From: Candidatus Micrarchaeota archaeon
GTDB lineage: Archaea; B1Sed10-29; B47-G15
NCBI GenBank assembly: GCA_003660975.1
Contig: QMVG01000002.1
Span: 93,848 to 117,847, forward strand
Reading direction: 5' to 3'
Length of the DNA stretch: 24,000 bases
The position numbers and the translations under genes are program-made. The first letter of the stretch is position 1, and every line of letters starts with the position of its first letter. The notes below the pieces were generated by a model. That model was not told where the DNA came from. It did not search any database and saw nothing but the letters and a program-made list of their open reading frames with translations. Positions 2,589 to 23,494 of the stretch are shown here, in pieces.

Positions 2589-3815
2589 ATGAAGATTATA
2601 GCAGATCTTCATCTGCATTCCCATTTTTCAAGAGCCACAAGCCCAAAAATGAACTTGGAGGGCATATCTGAAGGTGCAAGGAAAAAGGGTTTGAACCTAT
2701 TGGGCACTGGAGATTTTACTCACCCAAAGTATTTTGAAGAGTTAAAAAGAAAACTGCTGCCAAGCGATAATGGGACAGGCATTTATGAGTATAACGGCAT
2801 TCATTTCATGCTTCAGGTTGAGATATCATTAATATATCAACAGGGAGGGAAGCAACGCAGGGTGCATCATGTAATATTTGCTCCAGATTTTGAGGCTGCA
2901 GAGCAGATTAACAGCATGTTTTCTAAGTGGGGGAGGTTAGATTACGATGGAAGGCCTATTTTTGGAAAATCATCTATGGAATTCATGGATGCTCTGATGG
3001 CTCTATGTCCTGATGCTTTTGTGGTTCCTGCTCATGCTTGGACACCATGGTATGGCATATTCGGAAGCATGAGTGGCTTTGACTCTTTAAAGGAAGCCTT
3101 CGGAGAACATGTGAGACATATCCATGCGATAGAGACAGGTTTAAGTAGCGACCCTGCTATGAACTGGAGGATAAGCGAATTGGATAATGTATCTCTGATA
3201 TCAAATAGCGATTCGCACTCCCCATATCCTTGGAGACTTGGGAGAGAAGCAAATGTTTTCGACACGAAAATGACATACAAAGACATAACTAATACTATAA
3301 CAACCAGAAAAGGATTTGAGTATACAATAGAGGTAGATCCAGCCTATGGAAAGTACCACTACGATGGGCATAGAAATTGCGGCGTGTCTATGAGCCCTGA
3401 AGAAGCGAGGAAGCACAATAACATCTGTCCTGTCTGCGGCAAGCCACTTACCCTGGGGGTGGAACACAGGGTTGAGGATTTGGCAGACAGACCAGCAGGA
3501 TATAGACCAAAGCATGCAGTTGATTTTATAAAATTGCTGCCTTTAGCAGAGTTAATCGCCACTGCGAGAAAGAGGAGCTTGTCATCACCTACTGTTACAA
3601 AAGAGATGCACCAAATAATGAAAGATTACTCCGAGCTGTATGTGCTTACTGAAATGCCTGAAGATGAAATAAGGAAAATTGCGGATGAAAGCTTAGCAGA
3701 ACTGATACTCAAAAACAGGAATCAAGAATTGAAAATTAAACCAGGCTATGATGGTGTTTACGGTGAAATAATATTGGAGAGCGGAGCTCAGTCCTCGCTT
3801 CTGGATTTTTCCTGA
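2589..3815 (+). CDS. PHP-domain nuclease with C-terminal Zn ribbon, endonuclease Q-like (COG1379)
   Basis: PHP metal motifs (ADLHLHSHFSRATS, GTGDFTHP, VPAHAWTPW, SNSDSHSP) plus GKYHYDGHRNC...CPVCGKPLTLGVEHRV. This architecture matches what I recall for Thermococcales EndoQ. Confidence 0.65.
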   Translation: MKIIADLHLHSHFSRATSPKMNLEGISEGARKKGLNLLGTGDFTHPKYFEELKRKLLPSDNGTGIYEYNGIHFMLQVEISLIYQQGGKQRRVHHVIFAPDFEAAEQINSMFSKWGRLDYDGRPIFGKSSMEFMDALMALCPDAFVVPAHAWTPWYGIFGSMSGFDSLKEAFGEHVRHIHAIETGLSSDPAMNWRISELDNVSLISNSDSHSPYPWRLGREANVFDTKMTYKDITNTITTRKGFEYTIEVDPAYGKYHYDGHRNCGVSMSPEEARKHNNICPVCGKPLTLGVEHRVEDLADRPAGYRPKHAVDFIKLLPLAELIATARKRSLSSPTVTKEMHQIMKDYSELYVLTEMPEDEIRKIADESLAELILKNRNQELKIKPGYDGVYGEIILESGAQSSLLDFS

Positions 3816-9208: not shown

Positions 9209-11899
9209 ATGAGAAGTTTGAATTTAAAGAGGGTGGCGGCCATCGCAGCTGGAGCTGCAATGGTTGGTAGCACACTTGCTACTGGTTTGGCTGCAGTAAA
9301 CACCCAAGGTGACGTCACAAGCTTTGTACAGAACGTCAAAGCAAACCTAGACGACGTGGAGATCGTCGTCGGAACGAACGGAGCTGCAATCAGTGACGGA
9401 ATACAGGCAGCTAAGTTAGCAGCTGTTCTTGCAACCCTCAACTTTGAGGAAGCAACTGACGTAGCAGCAGTACCTGACACATCAGGAGTAACAATCGGCG
9501 AGAAGTCAGTAAAGGTCTCAACATCAACAGGAGGAACAATAGTACAGCCATCAGAGGTAGAGTTCCCAATAGTCTACCCAGCAGTAGTGGATTACTCCTC
9601 AAGCGTAAGTTATTCTACCGGTTCAAAACCAGCAACCTTGACGCCAGATGTCCTCCCAGGTGTTCTGACCAGGTCAACATTTGAGACAATAACATCAGGA
9701 GGAACAACTGTTGACAGGATGCTTGAGGAGCAGATAGTGATAGACAGCGGCAATGTCAAGTACGCAGAGGACACAGACCCAGACGGACACGGGCTGTACT
9801 GGAACCTCGGAGGCAAGGACCACATCCACTACAAGCTCGACTTTACGAAGAGCGGAAATGGTCTGCCAACAGGTTCTGGCAACTACTCAGAAACGCCTGA
9901 GATAACACTTCTGGGACACACCTATGGAATAAACACAAGAAAGCTAGCTGACAATGTATTTGAGCTCTACGCAGGAGACAAGATAACACTGACATCAGGA
10001 GATGAGTACGAGACAGCAGACGGTTACACAATAAAAGTCAACTTAGTGAGCCAAATAACTAGTGAAAGCACCACACGTGGAAAGGTCTCCTTGACCGTGA
10101 CATCTCCTGACGGAGACGAGCAGACAAGAAGCATCCAGGAAGGAAACTCATACGAGTTCTTCGGAGGAGCAGTCACAATAACAGTTGACAGCGCAGCAAC
10201 AGGTTTCACTCAGGAGAACGTCCAGACAGGAGTTGCAACCCTTAGGATCGGAACAGGCTCATTGAAGTTTGAGAAAGGAGATCCATTCCCACTTGACCCT
10301 GCCTGGAAGGTCAAGGACATAACCTGGAGCTCTGGATACCTGCAGTCAATAGACATAACATACGGAAACCCAGACGGAGAAACATACTTTGAGAAGGGAG
10401 ACTTCCAGGGAGATGTGAAGCACGGGCTTGCGCAGGGAGTAATCGTGCCAGGTCCAAAGGACGCAGACGGAAAATCCCTGTTCAACATCCAGCTTGCAGG
10501 CTTTGGAGGTTCAACCCAGATAGACACAACAACACTTGAGTTTGAGGGAGACGGCAGCGACTCAGATGCTGTAATGCACGTGACATGGGTTGACCCAGAC
10601 GGCTTGACAAATGTGCTGGATGCCAGCAAGGACGAATTGGCTCCATTCCACAAACTAGTTGCTGGTTCAAATGAGACATTGAACGCGACAACAGAGGCCA
10701 ACTACTTCATAGTGAACGACAAGCTATTTGTCTTCAAGGGATGGACAACAGAGGGGCTTCCAACGCATTTCGTAAAGCCAAGGTTCGCAATAGGCTCAGC
10801 AACAGGTCCTGTAATTGAGGGAGACCCTGTTGACATGTCAAAGGCATCACCAACAGGACACTTCAAGTACACATCAGGAGCTTCAGCAACAGGAGGCAAC
10901 ATAGACTGTACATTCACGTACTACAGCAATGCCTCAAAGGACGATGGCTGGATACACATAGCATACGATGCCGCAACATGTGACATAATACCTGACCAAG
11001 TGAACGCAGGAATGGAAGCAGTAATGGACCAAGCAGCTCAGAGCGGTACGCCTGTAACAATGGACCTCAGGTATGTGAGGGGCGCAAAGCTGAACGCCTC
11101 AAGCGAGACCAATGTGGATGGAAAGACATTCCCTGTTGTGTTGCTCTGGGAGGCGAACCAGACATACCCAGGAGCTGACAGGCCAATTGTTATAATGTAT
11201 GACGGCTCAACAACAACTGGTTTCAGCAAGGATTACACAGGCATACTGGCAGGAATTCCAACAAACATAACCCTCTTAGGAAATGGAGCTAAGGGAGGAG
11301 CAGTCCTGAACATGTCAGAGTACACAGACAACAAGCTGGTTGACACACCTGCAAACAGTGCCTCAACAAGCAGCACAATACAAAACAAATACCACATAAC
11401 AGCCTACAGCTCTGAGTTGTCTGCGGATGGAAACAAGTTGACAATTGTCGTGCCAGAGGCCGCAAGGTCAGCTGTTGTGAAGGTGGCCAAGACCATTGAG
11501 GAAACAGAAGGCGAGGAAGGACAGGCATACTACACGCTGTCTGAGGGAGATTCAATCAGCGGCGTGACAATAGAAGAGATCAACGCAGAGATAACTGGTC
11601 TGGACAGCATCACCTGCGGTGCAGCTGAGGGAACACTCTACTCCAAGAAGACTGCACTTGACCCAACAGCTCTGGTGACGACGGACACAGCCGCAACAGC
11701 AACATACCAGATTGTTGTTGGAGGTCCATTTGTCAACAAGTTGGCACAGGCCATTGACACAACTGGACTGACAACGACAGGAGCTGGTGCACAGTACCTC
11801 ATCGCAACAGATGATGGTACAAAGTTGCTGGCTGCTGGTTACACAGCAAGCGACACTGCGGCTGCAGTTGACGAGTTAATCCGTCTGTTGCAAGGATAA
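9209..11899 (+). CDS. S-layer protein (Methanococcales/Thermococcales-type N- and C-terminal S-layer domains)
   Basis: Signal peptide KRVAAIAAGAAMVGSTLATGLAA, then VVGTNGAAISDGIQAAKLAAVLA. The C-terminus YQIVVGGPFVNKLAQ...LLAAGYTASDTAAAVDELI matches the S_layer_N/S_layer_C patterns as I remember them. The protein is acidic, rich in Thr/Gly/Ala/Asp, poor in Lys, and carries 8 N-X-S/T sequons. Codon usage is strongly biased and differs from its neighbours. Confidence 0.85.
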   Translation: MRSLNLKRVAAIAAGAAMVGSTLATGLAAVNTQGDVTSFVQNVKANLDDVEIVVGTNGAAISDGIQAAKLAAVLATLNFEEATDVAAVPDTSGVTIGEKSVKVSTSTGGTIVQPSEVEFPIVYPAVVDYSSSVSYSTGSKPATLTPDVLPGVLTRSTFETITSGGTTVDRMLEEQIVIDSGNVKYAEDTDPDGHGLYWNLGGKDHIHYKLDFTKSGNGLPTGSGNYSETPEITLLGHTYGINTRKLADNVFELYAGDKITLTSGDEYETADGYTIKVNLVSQITSESTTRGKVSLTVTSPDGDEQTRSIQEGNSYEFFGGAVTITVDSAATGFTQENVQTGVATLRIGTGSLKFEKGDPFPLDPAWKVKDITWSSGYLQSIDITYGNPDGETYFEKGDFQGDVKHGLAQGVIVPGPKDADGKSLFNIQLAGFGGSTQIDTTTLEFEGDGSDSDAVMHVTWVDPDGLTNVLDASKDELAPFHKLVAGSNETLNATTEANYFIVNDKLFVFKGWTTEGLPTHFVKPRFAIGSATGPVIEGDPVDMSKASPTGHFKYTSGASATGGNIDCTFTYYSNASKDDGWIHIAYDAATCDIIPDQVNAGMEAVMDQAAQSGTPVTMDLRYVRGAKLNASSETNVDGKTFPVVLLWEANQTYPGADRPIVIMYDGSTTTGFSKDYTGILAGIPTNITLLGNGAKGGAVLNMSEYTDNKLVDTPANSASTSSTIQNKYHITAYSSELSADGNKLTIVVPEAARSAVVKVAKTIEETEGEEGQAYYTLSEGDSISGVTIEEINAEITGLDSITCGAAEGTLYSKKTALDPTALVTTDTAATATYQIVVGGPFVNKLAQAIDTTGLTTTGAGAQYLIATDDGTKLLAAGYTASDTAAAVDELIRLLQG

Positions 11900-11912
11900 G
11901 GGCTCTAACCCC

Positions 11913-11935
11913 CTTTTCCCTTATTTTTGTTTTTA
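11913..11935 (+). terminator. Oligo-T archaeal terminator after the S-layer gene
   Basis: CTTTTCCCTTATTTTTGTTTTT contains T4, T5 and T5 runs within 35 nt of the stop codon. Confidence 0.6.
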
Positions 11936-11958
11936 CAAAGCTCTGAGCGTTAGCTCTG

Positions 11959-11968
11959 TTTAAATATA
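11959..11968 (+). promoter_or_regulatory. TATA box for the downstream six-gene operon
   Basis: TTTAAATATA is centred about 27 nt upstream of the ATG at 11991, which suggests a leaderless transcript. Confidence 0.5.
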
Positions 11969-11990
11969 AGAAAAATGTTAAGTGATAACT

Positions 11991-12548
11991 ATGAAAAAAA
12001 GGACTAAAGCAGGATCAAAAAAGCAAGCGCAGTGGAAATACGGCCTTATCACCGTAATTGCAATTATCATTATTGCCTCAATAATCCTTTTAAGCTCCTC
12101 GCCTGTTAGCAGGTATAGGATAGGAAACACTGATGCTTACATCGTAGGCCATGATGCAGTAAACAGAATAAAACAGCTTCTGGAAGAATCCTCTCGCGTA
12201 ATTATTATAGCAGAAGGAGACAACCACACAACCCAAACAACCGGCTTTATATCATCTGCAGTAACATATCTTGCGAGGGACTTTCCGAAGCGACTAAATA
12301 GCTCAGACATCTATGGCATAGAGTATTACGGGGGCAGGGCCATTGGTTGCATAGGAGAGAATGCAAGCCTGGACTTTTGCCTCAATTTCAAGCCCTCTGA
12401 TAAGGAACTGCTCATAAAAATTAAATACCCAAATTACAGCGAGAACAATATTTTAGTTTACGATAACACCATTGAGTTCAGAGGCAAGTCAGGAGCAGAT
12501 ACCCTATCTCTTGTGAAAGCTTTTGAACAGCTCTTCCTAGGGAAGTGA
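11991..12548 (+). CDS. Hypothetical N-terminally membrane-anchored protein (first gene of the operon after the S-layer gene)
   Basis: Basic N-terminus MKKRTKAGSKKQAQWKY, one TM helix (GLITVIAIIIIASIILLSS), then an extracytoplasmic domain of about 145 aa. I prefer the ATG at 11991 to the GTG at 11982. No family recognised. Confidence 0.55.
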   Translation: MKKRTKAGSKKQAQWKYGLITVIAIIIIASIILLSSSPVSRYRIGNTDAYIVGHDAVNRIKQLLEESSRVIIIAEGDNHTTQTTGFISSAVTYLARDFPKRLNSSDIYGIEYYGGRAIGCIGENASLDFCLNFKPSDKELLIKIKYPNYSENNILVYDNTIEFRGKSGADTLSLVKAFEQLFLGK

Positions 12549-12552
12549 TTTT

Positions 12553-13461
12553 TTGAGATTGAACGTCCTGTGGTTTACACTATCTCTTGTGCTTATTTTT
12601 CTTTTGTATGAGCTCAGCGGCGCAAAAGTGCAAGGAATTAACCTTGCATACTTCTCCCTTTCTTCATTGCTTTTTCTCGCATCAACCTTTTTTTGGGCCT
12701 TAGCCTGGATCTATGTTATGAAAGCACCAACAAGAAAAGCACTTATTATACACCTAAGGTCTCTGGCAGGTGTTTTTGCTCCTATGGGTCTTGGAGCTGA
12801 CATGCTCAGAAGCTTTTGGGCATCAAAAGAAAAAGGAATGAAACCAGACAGGGCTTTGGCTTGCAGTTTGATAGTTAAGTTTTTCAAGTTTATTTTAATG
12901 TTCCTACTTTTACTGTTCAGCGTAATTGCCCTGAGCAGCCGTTCATATGATTTCCCTCAATACGTGTTCATCTTTATAAGCATGCTTTTCTCTGCTCTCA
13001 TAGGTCTTTTGATAATTATCCTGCTGAGGTCAAGAAAAACAATTGCATTTATCCACCATTTCATTAGGAAGTTATTCTTATGGCGCTTTCATGAGGAGCT
13101 TAACCTTAACTTTGACAGGTTGAGGTTGAGAGACATTGCCTTTATAATCATTGTGCTTATGCTGTCTGTTGTTTTTGAGATAGGGGCTGCCTGGGCTGCT
13201 TTCTTGTCCGTTTCTCAAGAGCTTCCTCTGCTACATATCATTATATTTTCCAGCGTTGCTTCCTCTCTTGCGCTGATAACCGTGTCGCCACAGGGGCTCG
13301 GATTCGTTGAGGCAGGCTCTTACTTTCTTCTGTCAATGGGCTACTTTTCGCTTTCAAGAGTGGTTATAGGCAATGTTTTAATAGTATGGAACATAGTAAG
13401 ATTATGGATTCCCAGCATTGTGGGTCTATTTGCTTCACTTGTAAAGAGGTCTGATAGATGA
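12553..13461 (+). CDS. Polytopic membrane protein, flippase-like / UPF0104 (LPG-synthase TM-domain) family candidate
   Basis: About 8 predicted TM helices. The segment GVFAPMGLGADMLRSFWASKEKGMKPDRALACSLIVKF resembles the conserved P.G.GGE..R...L.K.G block of this family. TTG start. The stop overlaps the next ATG (ATGA). Confidence 0.5.
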   Translation: MRLNVLWFTLSLVLIFLLYELSGAKVQGINLAYFSLSSLLFLASTFFWALAWIYVMKAPTRKALIIHLRSLAGVFAPMGLGADMLRSFWASKEKGMKPDRALACSLIVKFFKFILMFLLLLFSVIALSSRSYDFPQYVFIFISMLFSALIGLLIIILLRSRKTIAFIHHFIRKLFLWRFHEELNLNFDRLRLRDIAFIIIVLMLSVVFEIGAAWAAFLSVSQELPLLHIIIFSSVASSLALITVSPQGLGFVEAGSYFLLSMGYFSLSRVVIGNVLIVWNIVRLWIPSIVGLFASLVKRSDR

Positions 13462-14141
13462 TAACAGTTGTGATGCCTGCGTTTAATGAAGCCGAGAAAG
13501 GCATTGAAAATAACTTGAAAGAGCTGTGCAGGTTAAAAGAAGTTGACGAGATTGTTGTTGTTAATGACGGAAGCAGCGATGACACAGCCAAAATCGTCCA
13601 AAGCATTGCTAGAAGAAACAGGAAAGTTAAGTTAGTGAACCATGAGAGAAACAAAGGAAAAGGAGAAGCCATGAGGACAGGTGTTAAAAATGCTAGGGGA
13701 GACCTTATTGTTTTCATTGACGCCTCACAGTTTAGTATTTCAGACATTCCAAAGGTAGTAAAGAAAGCGAAAAATTATGACATAGTGATCGGCATTAGGG
13801 ACTTCAGCAAGATACCTCTGCTCAGAAGAATAAATAACCTCCTATCAAGGCTCGCTGTTTTCATAGCAACAGGCAGACATATCAGCGACAGCATAAGTGG
13901 CTTTAGGGCAATAAGAAAAAAAGACTTCATTGCACTTGATACTAAGGAAAGGGGCTATGCAATAGAAATAGAGATGAACTTCAAGGCATTAAGCAGGGGG
14001 ATGACTGTAGGTGAAGTTCCGGTTAAGGTCTACTACGAAAAAGAGTCCTCTTTACCCACATTGGGCTCTTTAAAGAGATCCGTATACGAGTCCTGCTTTA
14101 CTGTGCTTGGTGTGTTTAGGACCTGGCTTGGGCTGTGGTGA
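13458..14141 (+). CDS. GT2-family glycosyltransferase, polyprenol/dolichol-phosphate hexose synthase-like (Dpm1/AglD/AglJ class)
   Basis: VVMPAFNEAE, VVVNDGSSDDT, GKGEAMRTG, VFIDAS (DXD-type) and SGFRAIRK are canonical GT-A fold GT2 motifs. At 227 aa it is the catalytic domain only. Confidence 0.85.
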   Translation: MITVVMPAFNEAEKGIENNLKELCRLKEVDEIVVVNDGSSDDTAKIVQSIARRNRKVKLVNHERNKGKGEAMRTGVKNARGDLIVFIDASQFSISDIPKVVKKAKNYDIVIGIRDFSKIPLLRRINNLLSRLAVFIATGRHISDSISGFRAIRKKDFIALDTKERGYAIEIEMNFKALSRGMTVGEVPVKVYYEKESSLPTLGSLKRSVYESCFTVLGVFRTWLGLW

Positions 14142-14142
14142 T

Positions 14143-14559
14143 ATGGTAAGGAAATATTATACATTCAAACAGTTCAGGGAAATGCTTTTTGTAATTACCA
14201 TAATCCTTATATCTTTGCTGGCCATTTTACTTTCTTTGATTTCACCATACAAGCAGGAAGCAACTGTTTATGAACTTTGGCTGTCTAATTATTCTTCAAC
14301 AGTAGAGAAAGGCGAGAACATAACTTTTTTCATAAACAGCAACAGCGAGAGCAACAAGTTGTTTTCAATTGCCATATATTTTGACAGTAAATTGAAGGCA
14401 AATTTTCTGAGCACTTTGAACAAAAATAGTATAAAAGTAAACCTGCCAAACGACCTTGATAAAGGAAAGCACAGGATTTCTGTTGTGGTTTTTGATACCT
14501 CTACAGGAGATTGGTTTGGTCAAGGGCATCAGTTGTTCTATACGGTGAACGTCTTATGA
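14143..14559 (+). CDS. Hypothetical small membrane-anchored protein with a beta-rich ectodomain
   Basis: Start placed at MVRKYY (GGTGA SD just upstream). One TM helix (LFVITIILISLLAILLSLI) and a domain of about 100 aa with NYSS and NITF sequons. The stop overlaps the next ATG (ATGA). Confidence 0.5.
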   Translation: MVRKYYTFKQFREMLFVITIILISLLAILLSLISPYKQEATVYELWLSNYSSTVEKGENITFFINSNSESNKLFSIAIYFDSKLKANFLSTLNKNSIKVNLPNDLDKGKHRISVVVFDTSTGDWFGQGHQLFYTVNVL

Positions 14560-15980
14560 AAAAGATAACAGTTTCATTGTTGCTTGCTTTGATATTCATT
14601 ACAGGGCTCGCATTAAGGCTAATGCCTGCGCTCAATTCAGAGCTTCCACTTAGGTTTGATTCTTACTATCACGCCCGTGTTGCAGAGTTGATAAATAGAG
14701 ACATGTCTATCCCATCTTGGGAACCATGGCCTTATGGTGGAAGGCCCCATGTATACCCTCCTGCCTATCCGCTGCTTTTGCTTTTTATTTCCAAGCTTTT
14801 TATGACAACTACTTTGAATGCAAGCAGGTTTGTACTTCCTTTCATAAGCTCTTTGATTGTTGTAGCAGCTTTTTACTTTGTTAGGTCATTTAAGTCAGAA
14901 AGGGCAGCATTGATAGCCAGTTTTCTGATTTCAGTTAACCCTTATCTTGTGTCATCATCATACGATTCTCCCCAAGTGATAGGGATACTCCTTCTTATTA
15001 TCGCAGTGTATTTTGTTTTCAAAAAAGAATTTTTTAAAGCATCCATCTTGCTAGCATCAGTTTTTTTCTTTAATCCATTTAGCTTAGTTATGTTCTCAGT
15101 TCCGCTTTTTGCCTATCTGTTGATAAGGGACAAAACACTCAACACTGCAAAGACATTCTCATTACCTATAATCACCTCCATTCTCTGGCTGCTTTTAAAT
15201 TTCAACGCTACGTCCTGCTATAACAATTGGATAGGGCCTTTATTCATAATGAAAAAAATAAACCCCTGGATAAATTTCGCTACACCTATATTCATATTTC
15301 TTCCAATTATAGCCTTTGTTATGATTAAAGACCTTAAGGACAAGTTCAGGTTTTTCTGGTTTATCTCTTCAATTGTTTTTGTGGCAGTATTCATGCTTCA
15401 TTTTATTACTCCTATTTTCCATCCTTGGAGGGCAGATGTTTATCTAATGCTTGCCCTCTCTTTTCTGTTTTCCGATTCTTTGTCAAGCCTAAACTGGAAA
15501 AACCTATTTCTGTTCATAACACTCTCAATGATAAGCCTTGCCTCCCTTTTCTCTGTTTTCCTAGCATCTCCCTTGATGATGCCCCCCCTCACACAGAACG
15601 AGTACAAACTGGTTGATTTTATCAGCAAAAACAATAAGGGGCTGCCGATATTGGCAAATCATGACATGTGCTCAAATATTCTAACCTTGACAAATAAAAG
15701 CTGTCTCTTGGACTTGAACTTTGAGTGCATACCAAATGCAACGAGTTGGTACGACTACGAACAGTTCTTCTGGGTAGCAAGCAGGCAGGAGATGAGAGAC
15801 ATTATAAATAGGAATCCAGATATATCCTATATTGCATACTCCTCAGGAGATTGGGGAAGGCAGTTCTTGGAATCTATGGATGTTGACAAGGTATATTCAG
15901 CGTGGACTGATTCGTCCAGAGATGCGAGCCTGTATAAGGTTAACAGAATTAAAGGCAATATAACGTATATGGAGGGCTGA
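14556..15980 (+). CDS. GT-C fold membrane glycosyltransferase, STT3/AglB-like paralogue 1 (no WWDYG motif)
   Basis: Polytopic protein of 474 aa. The first external loop RFDSYYHARVAE...PYGGRPHVYPPAYPLLL resembles the STT3/AglB (F)DP(W/Y)(F/Y)HxR...YPP region. The C-terminal soluble domain is about 130 aa. It aligns along its length with the next gene. Confidence 0.55.
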   Translation: MKKITVSLLLALIFITGLALRLMPALNSELPLRFDSYYHARVAELINRDMSIPSWEPWPYGGRPHVYPPAYPLLLLFISKLFMTTTLNASRFVLPFISSLIVVAAFYFVRSFKSERAALIASFLISVNPYLVSSSYDSPQVIGILLLIIAVYFVFKKEFFKASILLASVFFFNPFSLVMFSVPLFAYLLIRDKTLNTAKTFSLPIITSILWLLLNFNATSCYNNWIGPLFIMKKINPWINFATPIFIFLPIIAFVMIKDLKDKFRFFWFISSIVFVAVFMLHFITPIFHPWRADVYLMLALSFLFSDSLSSLNWKNLFLFITLSMISLASLFSVFLASPLMMPPLTQNEYKLVDFISKNNKGLPILANHDMCSNILTLTNKSCLLDLNFECIPNATSWYDYEQFFWVASRQEMRDIINRNPDISYIAYSSGDWGRQFLESMDVDKVYSAWTDSSRDASLYKVNRIKGNITYMEG

Positions 15981-15983
15981 GAA

Positions 15984-17414
15984 GTGAACAAAAGGTTGTT
16001 GTTGCTTTTCATTTTCTTTTTTGTATTTTTCTCACTCCCACAACTGCTAAGATTCGCGCTTTACTCTCCGTCTATCATAGGCACAACCCCTTATTTTCAC
16101 ATTAGAATGGCCGAATTGCTTCTCTCAGGTCAAGCTTATGATTCTTTGTCATTTGGAGGCAGATATTACACATACCCACCTGCCTATCACTGGCTTTTGG
16201 CAATTAGTCCTTTGAAATATCTTTTGAACCCCTTCATAGGTGCTTTGGGCGTAGTGCTTCTTTATTTCATCGCAAGAGAATTGGGCTTTTCAGAGGAATC
16301 TGCTTTATTCTCATCAGCGCTTCTGGGTTTTATCCCTGGCTATTTGTATCTTTCTGGACACATCAACCCGAGAATGCCCGCGCTCTTTTTCTTAATGCTT
16401 ACATTCCTCTTTCTCCTAAAGTCAAGAAAAGATAAAAGAATGTTTTATTTGTCTTTTCTCTCAATGCCAATCGTTTTTCTCATACATCCCCTCGTGGGAG
16501 CAGTTGCCGTCTTTTTGGTTCTTTTTCTTTTCAGGAGCATGTTTAAAAGGGTTGCCCTGCTTTCTCTCTTTTCTTTATCTGTATTTCTTCTGTGGTTCCT
16601 GCCATTAGCTCTTAACTTAGGTCTTCCGCAATATAGCTCATTCTATTCTGTTTATGTGGAGCTGAAAACAGGCATTCAATACTTCATATTTGAATACGGT
16701 TTGGTGAGCGATTCCATCACAGCTTTTATGCTGCTTCTGTCTTTATACGCAATATTTAAGGTGAAAGGCAAGAGCTTTGTGAAGGAATGGGCAATATTGG
16801 CTTTCTTCCTTCCACTACTGATAGGAAATAGGATAAATGAGCAACTGCTGTTTCCAGTAGCTCTTTTGGCTGCTGAGGTTTTTATTAATCATTGGAATAG
16901 GTTCTGGAAAGACATCAAGTTAGATTTCGTGCCTGTTAAGGTCTGGACAGCTTTGTTTATGCTTTACGTTTCTGTAGCTGCAATACTTGCCGCAGGAGCT
17001 CTTATGTTTTTCCCACCGTCAGCAGAAGAATACCACGCAATGCAGTGGCTGTCATTACATAGTCCAGAAAATGCCGTGGTATTCGCTGATTGGTTCTACG
17101 GTCATTGGATAAGTGCTATTGCAAAAAGGAAGAATGTTATGGACGCTTATGCCGAATACGCGCCGAACCTGGAACAGAGGTTCAGGGACAGCAACAAAAT
17201 ACTTTACGGCTCTGATATAAATGTTACTATATCTTTGCTTAGGAAATATAATGTGTCTTATGTTTACTATGAAAGGCCAAGAGATGCGGAGTTATGCTCT
17301 GGTTTTCCATATATAACACGCTATCCATACTTTAAAAAGCTCTACCAGGATAAGAGAATTTACATATACAAGGTAGATTATCTTGGCAACTCAACACCAG
17401 TGCCTATCTGCTGA
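15984..17414 (+). CDS. GT-C fold membrane glycosyltransferase, short STT3/AglB-like oligosaccharyltransferase candidate (paralogue 2)
   Basis: GTG start with a GGAGGG SD. The loop TTPYFHIRMAE...GGRYYTYPPAYHWLL is STT3-like. VVFADWFYGHWISAIAKRKNVMD aligns to the AglB WWDYG(Y/H)WI block, and LLRKYNVSYVYYE aligns to the following AglB/STT3 block. At 476 aa it is shorter than any AglB I know of. Confidence 0.6.
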   Translation: MNKRLLLLFIFFFVFFSLPQLLRFALYSPSIIGTTPYFHIRMAELLLSGQAYDSLSFGGRYYTYPPAYHWLLAISPLKYLLNPFIGALGVVLLYFIARELGFSEESALFSSALLGFIPGYLYLSGHINPRMPALFFLMLTFLFLLKSRKDKRMFYLSFLSMPIVFLIHPLVGAVAVFLVLFLFRSMFKRVALLSLFSLSVFLLWFLPLALNLGLPQYSSFYSVYVELKTGIQYFIFEYGLVSDSITAFMLLLSLYAIFKVKGKSFVKEWAILAFFLPLLIGNRINEQLLFPVALLAAEVFINHWNRFWKDIKLDFVPVKVWTALFMLYVSVAAILAAGALMFFPPSAEEYHAMQWLSLHSPENAVVFADWFYGHWISAIAKRKNVMDAYAEYAPNLEQRFRDSNKILYGSDINVTISLLRKYNVSYVYYERPRDAELCSGFPYITRYPYFKKLYQDKRIYIYKVDYLGNSTPVPIC

Positions 17415-23065: not shown

Positions 23066-23494
23066 TCAGAACCCTAACTTGCGTCTCTTCTTTTCTTCTT
23101 CATATTCCTCATTTAACTTCTTTTCTATAGCTTTTTTAAGCGGAAAGTTAAAACGATTGATGTCCACCCCATAGCGGGACATTAGCTGTATGCCAAGCTC
23201 CACAGCTTTGGCCATATCCTTCTTTGACAGTTCATTTATTTCCCCCGTGGCTACTAGGACAGGATCTGCTTTTTTTGCCTTTTCCGCCTCTGCCCTCAAG
23301 CGAGATTTCATATCTGGGTCCCAAGTCTTATTATATTTATTTATGGTCTTTTCACGCTTTTTTCTTTCCATTTCTATTAACTCATCAACATCTCTAACCT
23401 CTTTTGCTACTGTTTTTTTCGTTTTCCCCGGTATTTGGAAGATAAAAGGCGCTGCAACTTTTCCAAGACGTGCTTTCTTTCTTCTAAAGCCCAT
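23066..23494 (-). CDS. Hypothetical Lys/Glu-rich protein (142 aa)
   Basis: ATG preceded by a GAGGTG SD 5 nt upstream. The stop lies 1 nt from the dph2 ATG. Very basic termini (MGFRRKKARLGK..., ...EEEKKRRKLGF). No family recognised. Confidence 0.5.
   Translation of the reverse strand: MGFRRKKARLGKVAAPFIFQIPGKTKKTVAKEVRDVDELIEMERKKREKTINKYNKTWDPDMKSRLRAEAEKAKKADPVLVATGEINELSKKDMAKAVELGIQLMSRYGVDINRFNFPLKKAIEKKLNEEYEEEKKRRKLGF

Follow-up and report, generated by a model that had tools for sequence, protein, structure and literature searches.

A tandem of miniature STT3-like proteins lacking the WWDYG motif beside an S-layer gene in a Candidatus Micrarchaeota archaeon

Results

We examined a 24,000-nt stretch of genomic DNA from a Candidatus Micrarchaeota archaeon (GenBank assembly GCA_003660975.1, contig QMVG01000002.1, positions 93,848 to 117,847 of the forward strand), referred to as the window, which corresponds to ~92.7-116.7 kb of a 127,970-bp contig. 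Two adjacent genes in the window, named par1 and par2 here, had been predicted from the sequence to encode small relatives of STT3 and AglB, the catalytic proteins of oligosaccharyltransferases (OSTs). Both were assigned to glycosyltransferase fold class C (GT-C) as follows:

14556..15980, + strand: par1, 474 amino acids (aa), miniature STT3-like GT-C protein, 'D-type'
15984..17414, + strand: par2, 476 aa, miniature STT3-like GT-C protein, 'T-type'

The coordinates of both open reading frames (ORFs), together with all the peptide strings quoted in the original prediction, were recovered in the translations. The ATG of par1 overlaps the stop codon of an upstream gene coding for a small membrane protein (ATGA), and par2 starts at a GTG located 9 nt 3′ of a GGAGG sequence. 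The two genes are intact and translationally coupled. par1 is identical to the NCBI protein DRN74_02095, annotated as 'hypothetical protein' from Candidatus Micrarchaeota archaeon.

The two proteins had been proposed to be homologous along their full length. A BLASTP alignment of par1 with par2 covered the N-terminal ~108 aa only (33% identity, E 1e-9), and comparison of profiles built from 13 par1 and 15 par2 orthologues extended the match to 428 columns with a probability of 99.9% and an E value of 1.4e-33, bearing out the proposal. The same profiles paired ILANHDMC...CLLD of par1 with FADWFYGHW...NVMD of par2, which reproduced the pairing of the C-terminal domains previously made by eye.

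The likeness of both proteins to STT3 and AglB was supported by a family profile, by fold comparison and by hhalign. A profile of 91 family sequences, searched against all PDB sequences, matched STT3A (E 7e-22), AfAglB (5e-18), yeast STT3 (2e-14) and PglB (3e-9), compared with 1e-4 for ALG12 and 0.025 for Pmt1 among other GT-C proteins. AlphaFold models were obtained with a predicted local distance difference test (pLDDT) score of 86.8 and a predicted template modelling (pTM) score of 0.86 for par1, and with values of 88.9 and 0.88, respectively, for par2. In Foldseek searches of the PDB, yeast and human STT3, AfAglB and PglB led the matches for both models, with E values of 7e-9 to 7e-6 for par1 and 5e-12 to 1e-8 for par2 (TMq 0.56-0.70 for par2). 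DPY19, AftA/AftD, ArnT and ALG9/12 occupied later ranks, except for one AftD entry in the par1 search, and PMT proteins came far lower; the C-terminal domain of par2 alone also matched that of AfAglB-S2 (3vu0). Lastly, hhalign against 40 canonical DPANN-type AglBs gave E 3.7e-31 over 466 columns for par2 and E 4.1e-27 over 437 columns for par1. On the strength of these alignments and predicted structures, we assign both proteins to the STT3/AglB/PglB branch of GT-C enzymes. The possibility that both might fall in GT39 or GT83, raised in the original prediction, was not borne out, as all three approaches favoured STT3/AglB/PglB.

Family databases gave weaker signals. The Pfam match of par1 to STT3 was sub-threshold (22.1 bits, cut-off 24.5), and residues 80-214 of par2 scored above the cut-offs for PF02366 (PMT, 29.3 bits, cut-off 22.7) and PF13231 (PMT_2, 26.9 bits, cut-off 26.1). 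In NCBIfam, par1 gave a weak archaeo_STT3 match and par2 none. An assignment to the GT39 protein O-mannosyltransferases was nevertheless rejected: the Pfam PMT match is limited to ~135 residues of the core common to GT-C proteins, Pmt1 has an E value of 0.025 in the family-profile search, versus 7e-22 for STT3A, Foldseek gives E 1e-2 to 1e-1 for Pmt proteins versus 1e-12 for STT3, and the 476-aa par2 has no MIR domains. In a rough neighbour-joining tree the par1 clade, the par2 clade, other miniature clades and the canonical WWDxG AglBs were all separate, so that par1 and par2 would be old subfamilies rather than recent duplicates. The C-terminal domains of P0011, P0073 and P0182, which belong to the par2-type and other miniature clades, also weakly matched the end of NCBIfam TIGR03662, the 'chlor_Arch_YYY domain' of a large membrane-protein family of Chloroflexi and Archaea (1e-6 to 8e-4).

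According to the secondary structure of the models, each protein would have a C-terminal domain of ~130 aa behind ~11 membrane helices; a Kyte-Doolittle scan fused adjacent helices and was not used for this count. STT3 has 13 membrane helices, i.e. two more, and in the alignments STT3A carries a ~66-residue insertion after the seventh helix relative to the miniature proteins. As AfAglB-S1 (591 aa) and AfAglB-S2 (593 aa) have been described as the shortest STT3/AglB/PglB proteins (PMC3703281), par1 and par2 lie ~115 aa below the lower end of the described range, and the earlier statement on their small size was right.

The sequences of the two paralogues are nonetheless well conserved, with 21-38 invariant residues per paralogue among orthologues of 27-57% identity. 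In the topology suggested by the models, nearly all the conserved polar residues would be located in outer loops, and this strong conservation of polar outer-face residues argues against par2 being a dead pseudoenzyme. An exhaustive profile search of 1.84 billion cluster representatives returned 30,383 matches at E<=1e-3, of which 4,690 also passed E<=1e-10 and 854 passed E<=1e-30. The best 150 matches consisted almost wholly of full-length proteins with a length of roughly 360-540 aa; four had ~640-690 aa, and those of them that were checked were deacetylase fusions, and another had 1,220 aa. One named family member is a Woesearchaeota hypothetical protein. A scan of GTDB with par1 returned two loci only. 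The view that the pair consists of decaying duplicates was ruled out by the intact genes, the 21-38 invariant residues, the 854 representatives and the retention of the tandem in at least seven lineages, its order recurring in independent lineages.

Catalytic residues were mapped with hhalign, since the region spanning external loop 5 (EL5) and the conserved Arg came out misaligned when the proteins were aligned globally with canonical AglBs in MAFFT. The canonical Micrarchaeota AglB P0183 (GXO64_02865, 739 aa) carries a complete set of motifs, namely DPFYIYR, E-K-E, TVAE, VRLLF and WWDFG. In external loop 1 (EL1), the first Asp of the DXD motifs (D56 of PglB, D47 of AfAglB and of STT3; EFDPYFNYR in STT3A, LDPFYIYR in P0183) corresponds to the invariant D35 of par1 and to T35 of par2, a position held by T or P throughout the par2 clade; the loop-1 Asp is thus retained in par1 and lost from par2, as had been predicted. 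The acid of the EL1 'FD...GR' element is present as E56 in par1 and D53 in par2, and is D or E in 159/166 family members. At the second DXD site, a DXD/DXE/EXE/DXH motif after the third membrane helix that reads S-Y-D-N-E in STT3 and E-K-E in P0183, par1 has S-Y-D137-S-P-Q and so retains the first acid, in an alignment uncertain by one residue, and par2 has G-H126-I-N128-P-R130, in which N and R replace both acids. The TIXE/SVSE motif of EL5, whose Glu is E319 in PglB, is deleted from par1: the canonical GSTVAEN aligns with a gap, the loop comprises only ~15 residues and no conserved acid was found at par1 residues 215-235 in the orthologue alignment. The candidate counterpart in par2 is F-I-F-E237, which is near-invariant and lies one residue off the canonical Glu (T-V-A-E in P0183). 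The conserved Arg, which contacts the lipid-linked donor in OSTs, is represented by R292 (HPWR) in par1 and R283 (GNRINE) in par2, both aligning with 'VMVRLML' of STT3A and with R426 of P0183, whose position is presumably that of PglB R375 and yeast STT3 R404. The RINE element of par2 had been read as the EL5 TIxE motif, but its Arg is the conserved Arg just described and FIFE237 is the better candidate.

Neither protein has, as originally noted, a true WWDYG motif, which in OSTs forms the pocket for the +2 Ser/Thr. In par2 the site is occupied by D369-W-F-Y-G373-H-W, confirming DWFYG as its altered counterpart. In par1, N368-H-D370-M-C372 matches WWDFG/WWDYG column by column and retains the Asp, so the statement that this protein holds no trace of the motif was wrong. 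The site follows the pattern x-W-x-x-G-H-W in the par2 clade and mostly N-H-D-x-C in the par1 clade. The scaffold after it includes D386 in par1 and R382-K383 and D387 in par2, the Asp being present in 165/166 family members, and par1 has four conserved Cys residues, at positions 221, 372, 383 and 391. In neither protein was a DxxK or MxxI of the DK/MI motif, carried in OSTs by a kinked helix of the C-terminal domain, recognisable at the expected place by alignment without structural superposition, and D-V-D-K445 of par1 sits in a predicted strand; variant DK motifs are hard to recognise without a structure (PMC3703281). As aligned, the two proteins are complementary, par1 keeping the Asp set and lacking the EL5 Glu, par2 lacking both DXD acids and keeping the EL5 Glu. 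The proposal of complementary motifs therefore stands in that different catalytic subsets are retained, on a residue mapping that differs from the original one in the two assignments corrected above.

The pair lies at the end of a run of genes on the same strand that begins downstream of an S-layer gene:

9209..11899, + strand: S-layer protein, 896 aa (Pfam S_layer_C, 2.1e-9)
11991..12548, + strand: conserved protein of 185-188 aa with an N-terminal membrane helix, operon gene 1 (gene call in L081)
12553..13461, + strand: flippase-like polytopic membrane protein, LPG_synthase_TM / TIGR00374 (Pfam PF03706, 1.5e-20; NCBIfam TIGR00374, 5.5e-8)
13458..14141, + strand: glycosyltransferase family 2 (GT2) protein, 227 aa, polyprenyl-phosphate sugar synthase type (DPMS / ArnC / GtrB / AglJ / PpgS-like)
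14143..14559, + strand: small single-pass membrane protein, 138 aa (gene call in L081)

The junctions from the flippase-like gene to par2 are tight, with a 4-nt overlap at two of them and gaps of 1-3 nt at the others; the public gene call of the flippase-like gene begins at 12718 instead of 12553. The GT2 protein matched Pfam Glycos_transf_2 (1.7e-29) and, in NCBIfam, AglJ (8e-19), PpgS (4e-18), ArnC (1.4e-17) and the PgfS model (7e-16). Its best solved relatives were the P. furiosus Dol-P-Man synthase 5mlz (2.2e-12), ArnC and GtrB, all of which are polyprenyl-phosphate glycosyltransferases. Pfam searches with the proteins encoded at 11991-12548 and 14143-14559 returned no significant match. 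Orthologues of the former (27-34% identity) were found at the equivalent position in the related loci L001, L003, L005, L006 and L087, and orthologues of the latter in L003 and L005, with a similar-sized gene (126 aa) at the equivalent position in L087. Both are conserved members of the putative glycosylation operon.

On the 3′ side of par2, genes for TruD and aRF1 converge on it from the − strand; par2 (+) and truD (−) share 37 nt at their 3′ ends (window 17378-17414), and this head-on arrangement is kept in L001, L003, L005, L006 and L087. The neighbours of the operon in the window are archaeal housekeeping genes, coding for aRF1, TruD, eIF2-alpha, HisRS and a diphthamide synthesis protein. 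Two further ORFs in the window, at 2589-3815 (+) and 23066-23494 (−), had no significant Pfam match.

The S-layer gene has its own upstream TATA-like box and a downstream T-rich terminator; a T-rich tract and a TATA-like box lie between it and the next gene. Its GC content is 0.47-0.49, against ~0.40 in the remainder of the window, and its AT skew is strongly positive. These features suggest that it forms a separate, highly expressed unit. S-layer orthologues lie directly upstream of the operon in L001, L003, L005 and L006, and the S-layer protein is probably the target or a partner of the putative glycosylation operon that follows it. The S-layer protein of Micrarchaeum harzensis has been experimentally found to be glycosylated (bioRxiv 10.1101/2021.04.28.441871). 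Pfam assigns both it and the window protein to the S-layer-like family, a likeness at the level of the family rather than established orthology. Sequons were not enriched in the four S-layer orthologues relative to shuffled sequences (8 vs 7.0+/-2.3, 11 vs 10.3, 12 vs 10.5 and 11 vs 9.1), and the share of sequon columns conserved among the orthologues was marginally higher than that of Asn columns (11/28 vs 35/131). These S-layer proteins have no C-terminal membrane helix.

The whole order of S-layer protein, 188-aa protein, flippase-like protein, GT2, small membrane protein, par1, par2 and TruD(−) is found in L003 and L005 at 33-50% identity. It is also kept in L006, in which no match to the small membrane protein was detected. 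The par1-par2 tandem occurs in addition in L087, in L088 and on a 12.7-kb contig. At L001, on a 1.08-Mb contig, the gene at 10001-12067 encodes a par1-type protein that carries a DUF2334/NodB-type polysaccharide deacetylase as a fusion; truD comes immediately after it, and the locus lacks par2. Similar C-terminal DUF2334/NodB-type deacetylase fusions were found in the par1-type proteins P0026, P0029, P0035 and P0038 and in the par2-type protein P0008. In the deeper lineages L004 and L084, a 'D-type' gene (D-S-Y-Y-H/F) followed by a 'T/P-type' gene (WxxGHW) forms a tandem beside TruD, and in L084 an S-layer gene, the gene for a 188-aa protein and those for two processive-type GT2s are found within a few genes of this tandem. 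A looser tandem occurs among several GT-C-like genes in L085 and L086, the second protein having a loop-1 Glu and no WxxGHW. Processive-type GT2s are also carried by L085 and L004.

At L084 (1178-6691) the tandem adjoins genes for inositol-1-P synthase, inositol monophosphatase, a CDP-alcohol phosphatidyltransferase and a small GT2; these archaetidylinositol-type neighbours hint at a connection with lipid glycans. The inositol-1-phosphate synthase of L084 (1178-3679) contains an intein/LAGLIDADG domain, and the aRF1 of L085 (3634-5121) a HINT domain.

A canonical enzyme can be found in the same phylum in P0183, whose gene adjoins an AglH-like GT4 gene. Scanning metagenomes with P0183 revealed 73 related WWDFG loci, none of which was on a pair-bearing contig; the scan used near-exact peptide patterns, so this absence carries no weight. 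The 3.4 kb of source contig on the 3′ side of the window (to 120,140; L081) contained no AglB. In other archaea, miniature STT3-like genes without WWDYG adjoin a canonical AglB gene (L056, L068, L072-L074 and L078), so that the miniature family can coexist with a classical OST, which fits an accessory, non-OST role. At L068 (5234-12361), L072, L073, L074 and L078 the WWDFG AglB has at its flanks between one and three additional STT3-like genes, which code for 430-600 aa and lack WWDYG, in an arrangement that looks like a multi-GT-C cluster. In the glycosylation table published for M. harzensis, two weak TIGR04154 matches (3.5e-9 and 9.5e-23) are the sole STT3-like entries (bioRxiv 10.1101/2021.04.28.441871); on the same scale, P0183 scored 8.9e-38 and par1-type proteins 5e-12 to 3e-6.

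Discussion

Homology and gene context combined allowed us to propose a function for the pair. We lean modestly towards a reading in which par1 and par2 are a conserved, miniaturised pair from the STT3 branch that acts at the outer face of the membrane, as the transferases of a polyprenyl-phosphate-sugar pathway encoded by the operon. We infer donor, acceptor, order of action and complex formation here, the first two solely from the neighbouring genes. The GT2 would load a sugar on dolichyl phosphate at the cytoplasmic face, plausibly an N-acetylhexosamine (HexNAc) since an extracellular NodB-type deacetylase occurs as a fusion partner in relatives of either paralogue. The flippase-like protein would then carry the lipid-linked sugar to the outer side, an activity predicted from its family annotation, where the two miniature STT3 proteins would pass it to the cell envelope. 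The acceptor would most likely be the S-layer glycoprotein encoded upstream, or else a glycan or lipid by which this protein is carried or anchored. Transfer at the outer face from a dolichyl-phosphate sugar to the S-layer or envelope, and not classical sequon-dependent N-glycosylation, is the most likely activity.

Compared with AglB, STT3 and PglB (GT66), the pair shares the GT-C fold, an N-terminal membrane domain followed by a C-terminal alpha/beta domain that corresponds to the 'CC' core, the EL1 motif D-x-Y-Y/F-x-x-R (with its Asp in par1 but not in par2), the EL1 'FD...GR...YP' element, the conserved Arg and the G-(H/Y)-W...R...D scaffold after the WWDYG site. The differences lie in the ~115 aa shorter length, the ~11 rather than 13 helices, the lack of WWDYG and of a recognisable DK/MI, the loss of TIXE from par1 and of the DXD acids from par2, and the separate clades in the rough tree. 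P0183 comes from the same phylum and aligns with par1 and par2 across 437-466 columns, but carries the complete motif set beside a GT4, whereas par1 and par2 carry subsets of the motifs in an operon with S-layer, GT2 and flippase-like genes. In OSTs the EL1 Asp and the EL5 Glu together activate the acceptor Asn. Judging from their sequences, par1 and par2 are probably not classical N-X-S/T oligosaccharyltransferases, because both lack the WWD of the Ser/Thr pocket, with no recognisable DK/MI, and because each lacks one of these two carboxylates. They are more likely two distinct transferases that act sequentially or on different acceptors, possibly as a heterodimer like Pmt1-Pmt2.

The proposed pathway follows the logic of three-component polyprenyl-phosphate-sugar systems such as ArnC/ArnD/ArnEF/ArnT, GtrA/GtrB/GtrC, PpgS/Rv3779, CsbB/GtcA/YfhO and Haloferax AglD/AglR/AglS, in that a GT2 synthase and a candidate flippase accompany one or more GT-C proteins acting outside, donor use by the GT-C proteins being predicted here. 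The NodB-type deacetylase fusion of the relatives parallels ArnD, or the step from N-acetylgalactosamine (GalNAc) to galactosamine (GalN) in the PpgS pathway. The present operon differs from these systems in that its GT-C proteins are of the STT3 lineage rather than ArnT, GtrC, YfhO or PMT_2, that two paralogous GT-C proteins occur in fixed order and that the flippase candidate is of the LPG_synthase_TM type. Paralogous GT-C proteins that are encoded or act together are also known from the heterodimers Pmt1-Pmt2 of yeast and EmbA-EmbB of mycobacteria, and from the Pgf system of Streptococcus mutans, in which PgfS (a GT2) and the GT-C-like PgfM1/PgfM2 modify Thr-rich surface proteins. The present pair is known from its genes alone, and its GT-C subfamily differs from those of Pmt, Emb and Pgf.

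Several observations weigh against our preferred reading. In Euryarchaeota the glycans used by AglB are linked to Dol-P, and the Dol-P-hexose that links to Asn is made by AglJ-type GT2s, so by the same logic the operon could be a minimal N-glycosylation pathway. par1 retains D35, D137, R292 and the Asp of the WWD site, and the positions in EL5 and at the second DXD site are mapped with an uncertainty of one residue. The S-layer gene is probably transcribed as a unit of its own, and in L087 the pair has no adjacent S-layer or flippase-like gene. Lastly, the authors of the M. harzensis study take their two weak TIGR04154 matches as AglB (bioRxiv 10.1101/2021.04.28.441871).

The first alternative is accordingly that of a minimal N-glycosylating OST, in which par1 would be the AglB of these Micrarchaeota, by itself or with par2 in an accessory or pseudo-catalytic role, and would transfer a Dol-P-linked mono- or short oligosaccharide to Asn residues of the S-layer protein, NHD replacing WWD in acceptor recognition. 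We consider this possible but rather unlikely. STT3, AglB and PglB are the nearest relatives by both profile and fold, and D35, D137, R292 and D370 of par1 occupy canonical positions, but neither protein has WWDYG or a recognisable DK/MI, the EL5 TIXE segment is missing from par1 and both DXD acids from par2, and D370 is not conserved in the wider par1 clade. The AglJ-like GT2 of the operon would suit such a pathway, as would the glycosylated S-layer of M. harzensis, whose TIGR04154 matches are similar in strength to those of the miniature proteins, and two members of the family bear the IMG name 'asparagine N-glycosylation enzyme membrane subunit Stt3'. The conservation of sequon columns (11/28 vs 35/131 for Asn) points weakly the same way, set against sequon numbers that do not rise above shuffled expectation. 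The existence in Micrarchaeota of canonical WWDFG AglBs of ~740 aa (P0183), and the coexistence elsewhere of canonical AglBs with miniature paralogues, also argue against it.

A lipid or polysaccharide of the envelope, such as an S-layer-anchoring lipoglycan or an inositol-phospholipid glycan, could instead be the acceptor, with par1 and par2 acting in the manner of ArnT, PimE, AftD or EmbC. We regard this as unlikely. An anchoring glycan would suit S-layer proteins that have no C-terminal membrane helix, and the anchoring mode in M. harzensis is itself unknown (bioRxiv 10.1101/2021.04.28.441871); the S-layer gene is nevertheless the tightest and most recurrent neighbour of the pair. The archaetidylinositol genes and two processive-type GT2s of L084, the processive-type GT2s of L085 and L004, and the NodB-type deacetylase fusions, which are typical of polysaccharide and lipid-sugar pathways, all point towards such an acceptor. 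AftA/AftD, ArnT, ALG9/12 and PimE are among the structural matches, but the protein-modifying STT3, AglB and PglB are nearest by a wide margin, and the strong conservation of the G-H-W...R-K...D scaffold suggests that a peptide-type acceptor site has been retained.

The original prediction had offered three functional readings, namely a heteromeric OST, a neofunctionalised pair and an enzyme paired with a pseudoenzyme. The fixed tandem order, the translational coupling and the complementary motifs suggest that the two proteins may form a heterodimer. In its strongest form, this idea would make the pair an obligate two-subunit, sequon-independent, STT3-derived glycosyltransferase that places HexNAc onto the S-layer of DPANN archaea, possibly as their sole protein-glycosylation system. 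par1 would then provide the donor/metal site (D35, D137 and R292) and par2 an acceptor module made of the EL5 Glu and WxxGHW, and the Dol-P-linked HexNAc would be de-N-acetylated later, outside the cell, the whole amounting to a minimal, 11-helix OST-like machine. We hold this to be distinctly improbable; the L001 locus, which has par1 alone (the rest of the L001 genome was not seen), speaks weakly against an obligate heteromer. The last explanation, that par1 and par2 are GT39-type protein O-mannosyltransferases or decaying, non-functional AglB duplicates, could draw on the above-threshold PMT/PMT_2 scores of par2 and on the degenerate motifs of both proteins, but is rendered very improbable by the partial Pfam match, the weak Pmt scores, the absence of MIR domains and the conserved, intact genes.

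Conclusions

The STT3/AglB/PglB enzyme bearing WWDYG has been treated as a universal signature of N-glycosylation, with 591-593 aa described as its lower size limit. par1 and par2 are a variation within this known superfamily and form part of a large family of STT3-lineage proteins, ~450-500 aa long and so far uncharacterised, that lack the WWDYG signature and have no dedicated Pfam or NCBIfam model; a literature search found no paper on archaeal STT3-like proteins without WWDYG. The family is present in Micrarchaeota and in at least one other DPANN phylum (Woesearchaeota), and includes motif-complementary tandems beside S-layer genes. Its existence casts doubt on predicting N-glycosylation from STT3 homology in DPANN genomes, where weak 'AglB/STT3' annotations, such as those of M. 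harzensis, are no proof of canonical N-glycosylation. If these proteins are active enzymes, they would point either to a minimal scaffold with alternative acceptor recognition for OST-type catalysis, or to an OST fold that has been turned to other envelope glycosylations in ultra-small archaea, which depend on a host and meet it at their surface. The pair offers a minimal STT3 scaffold for experiment.

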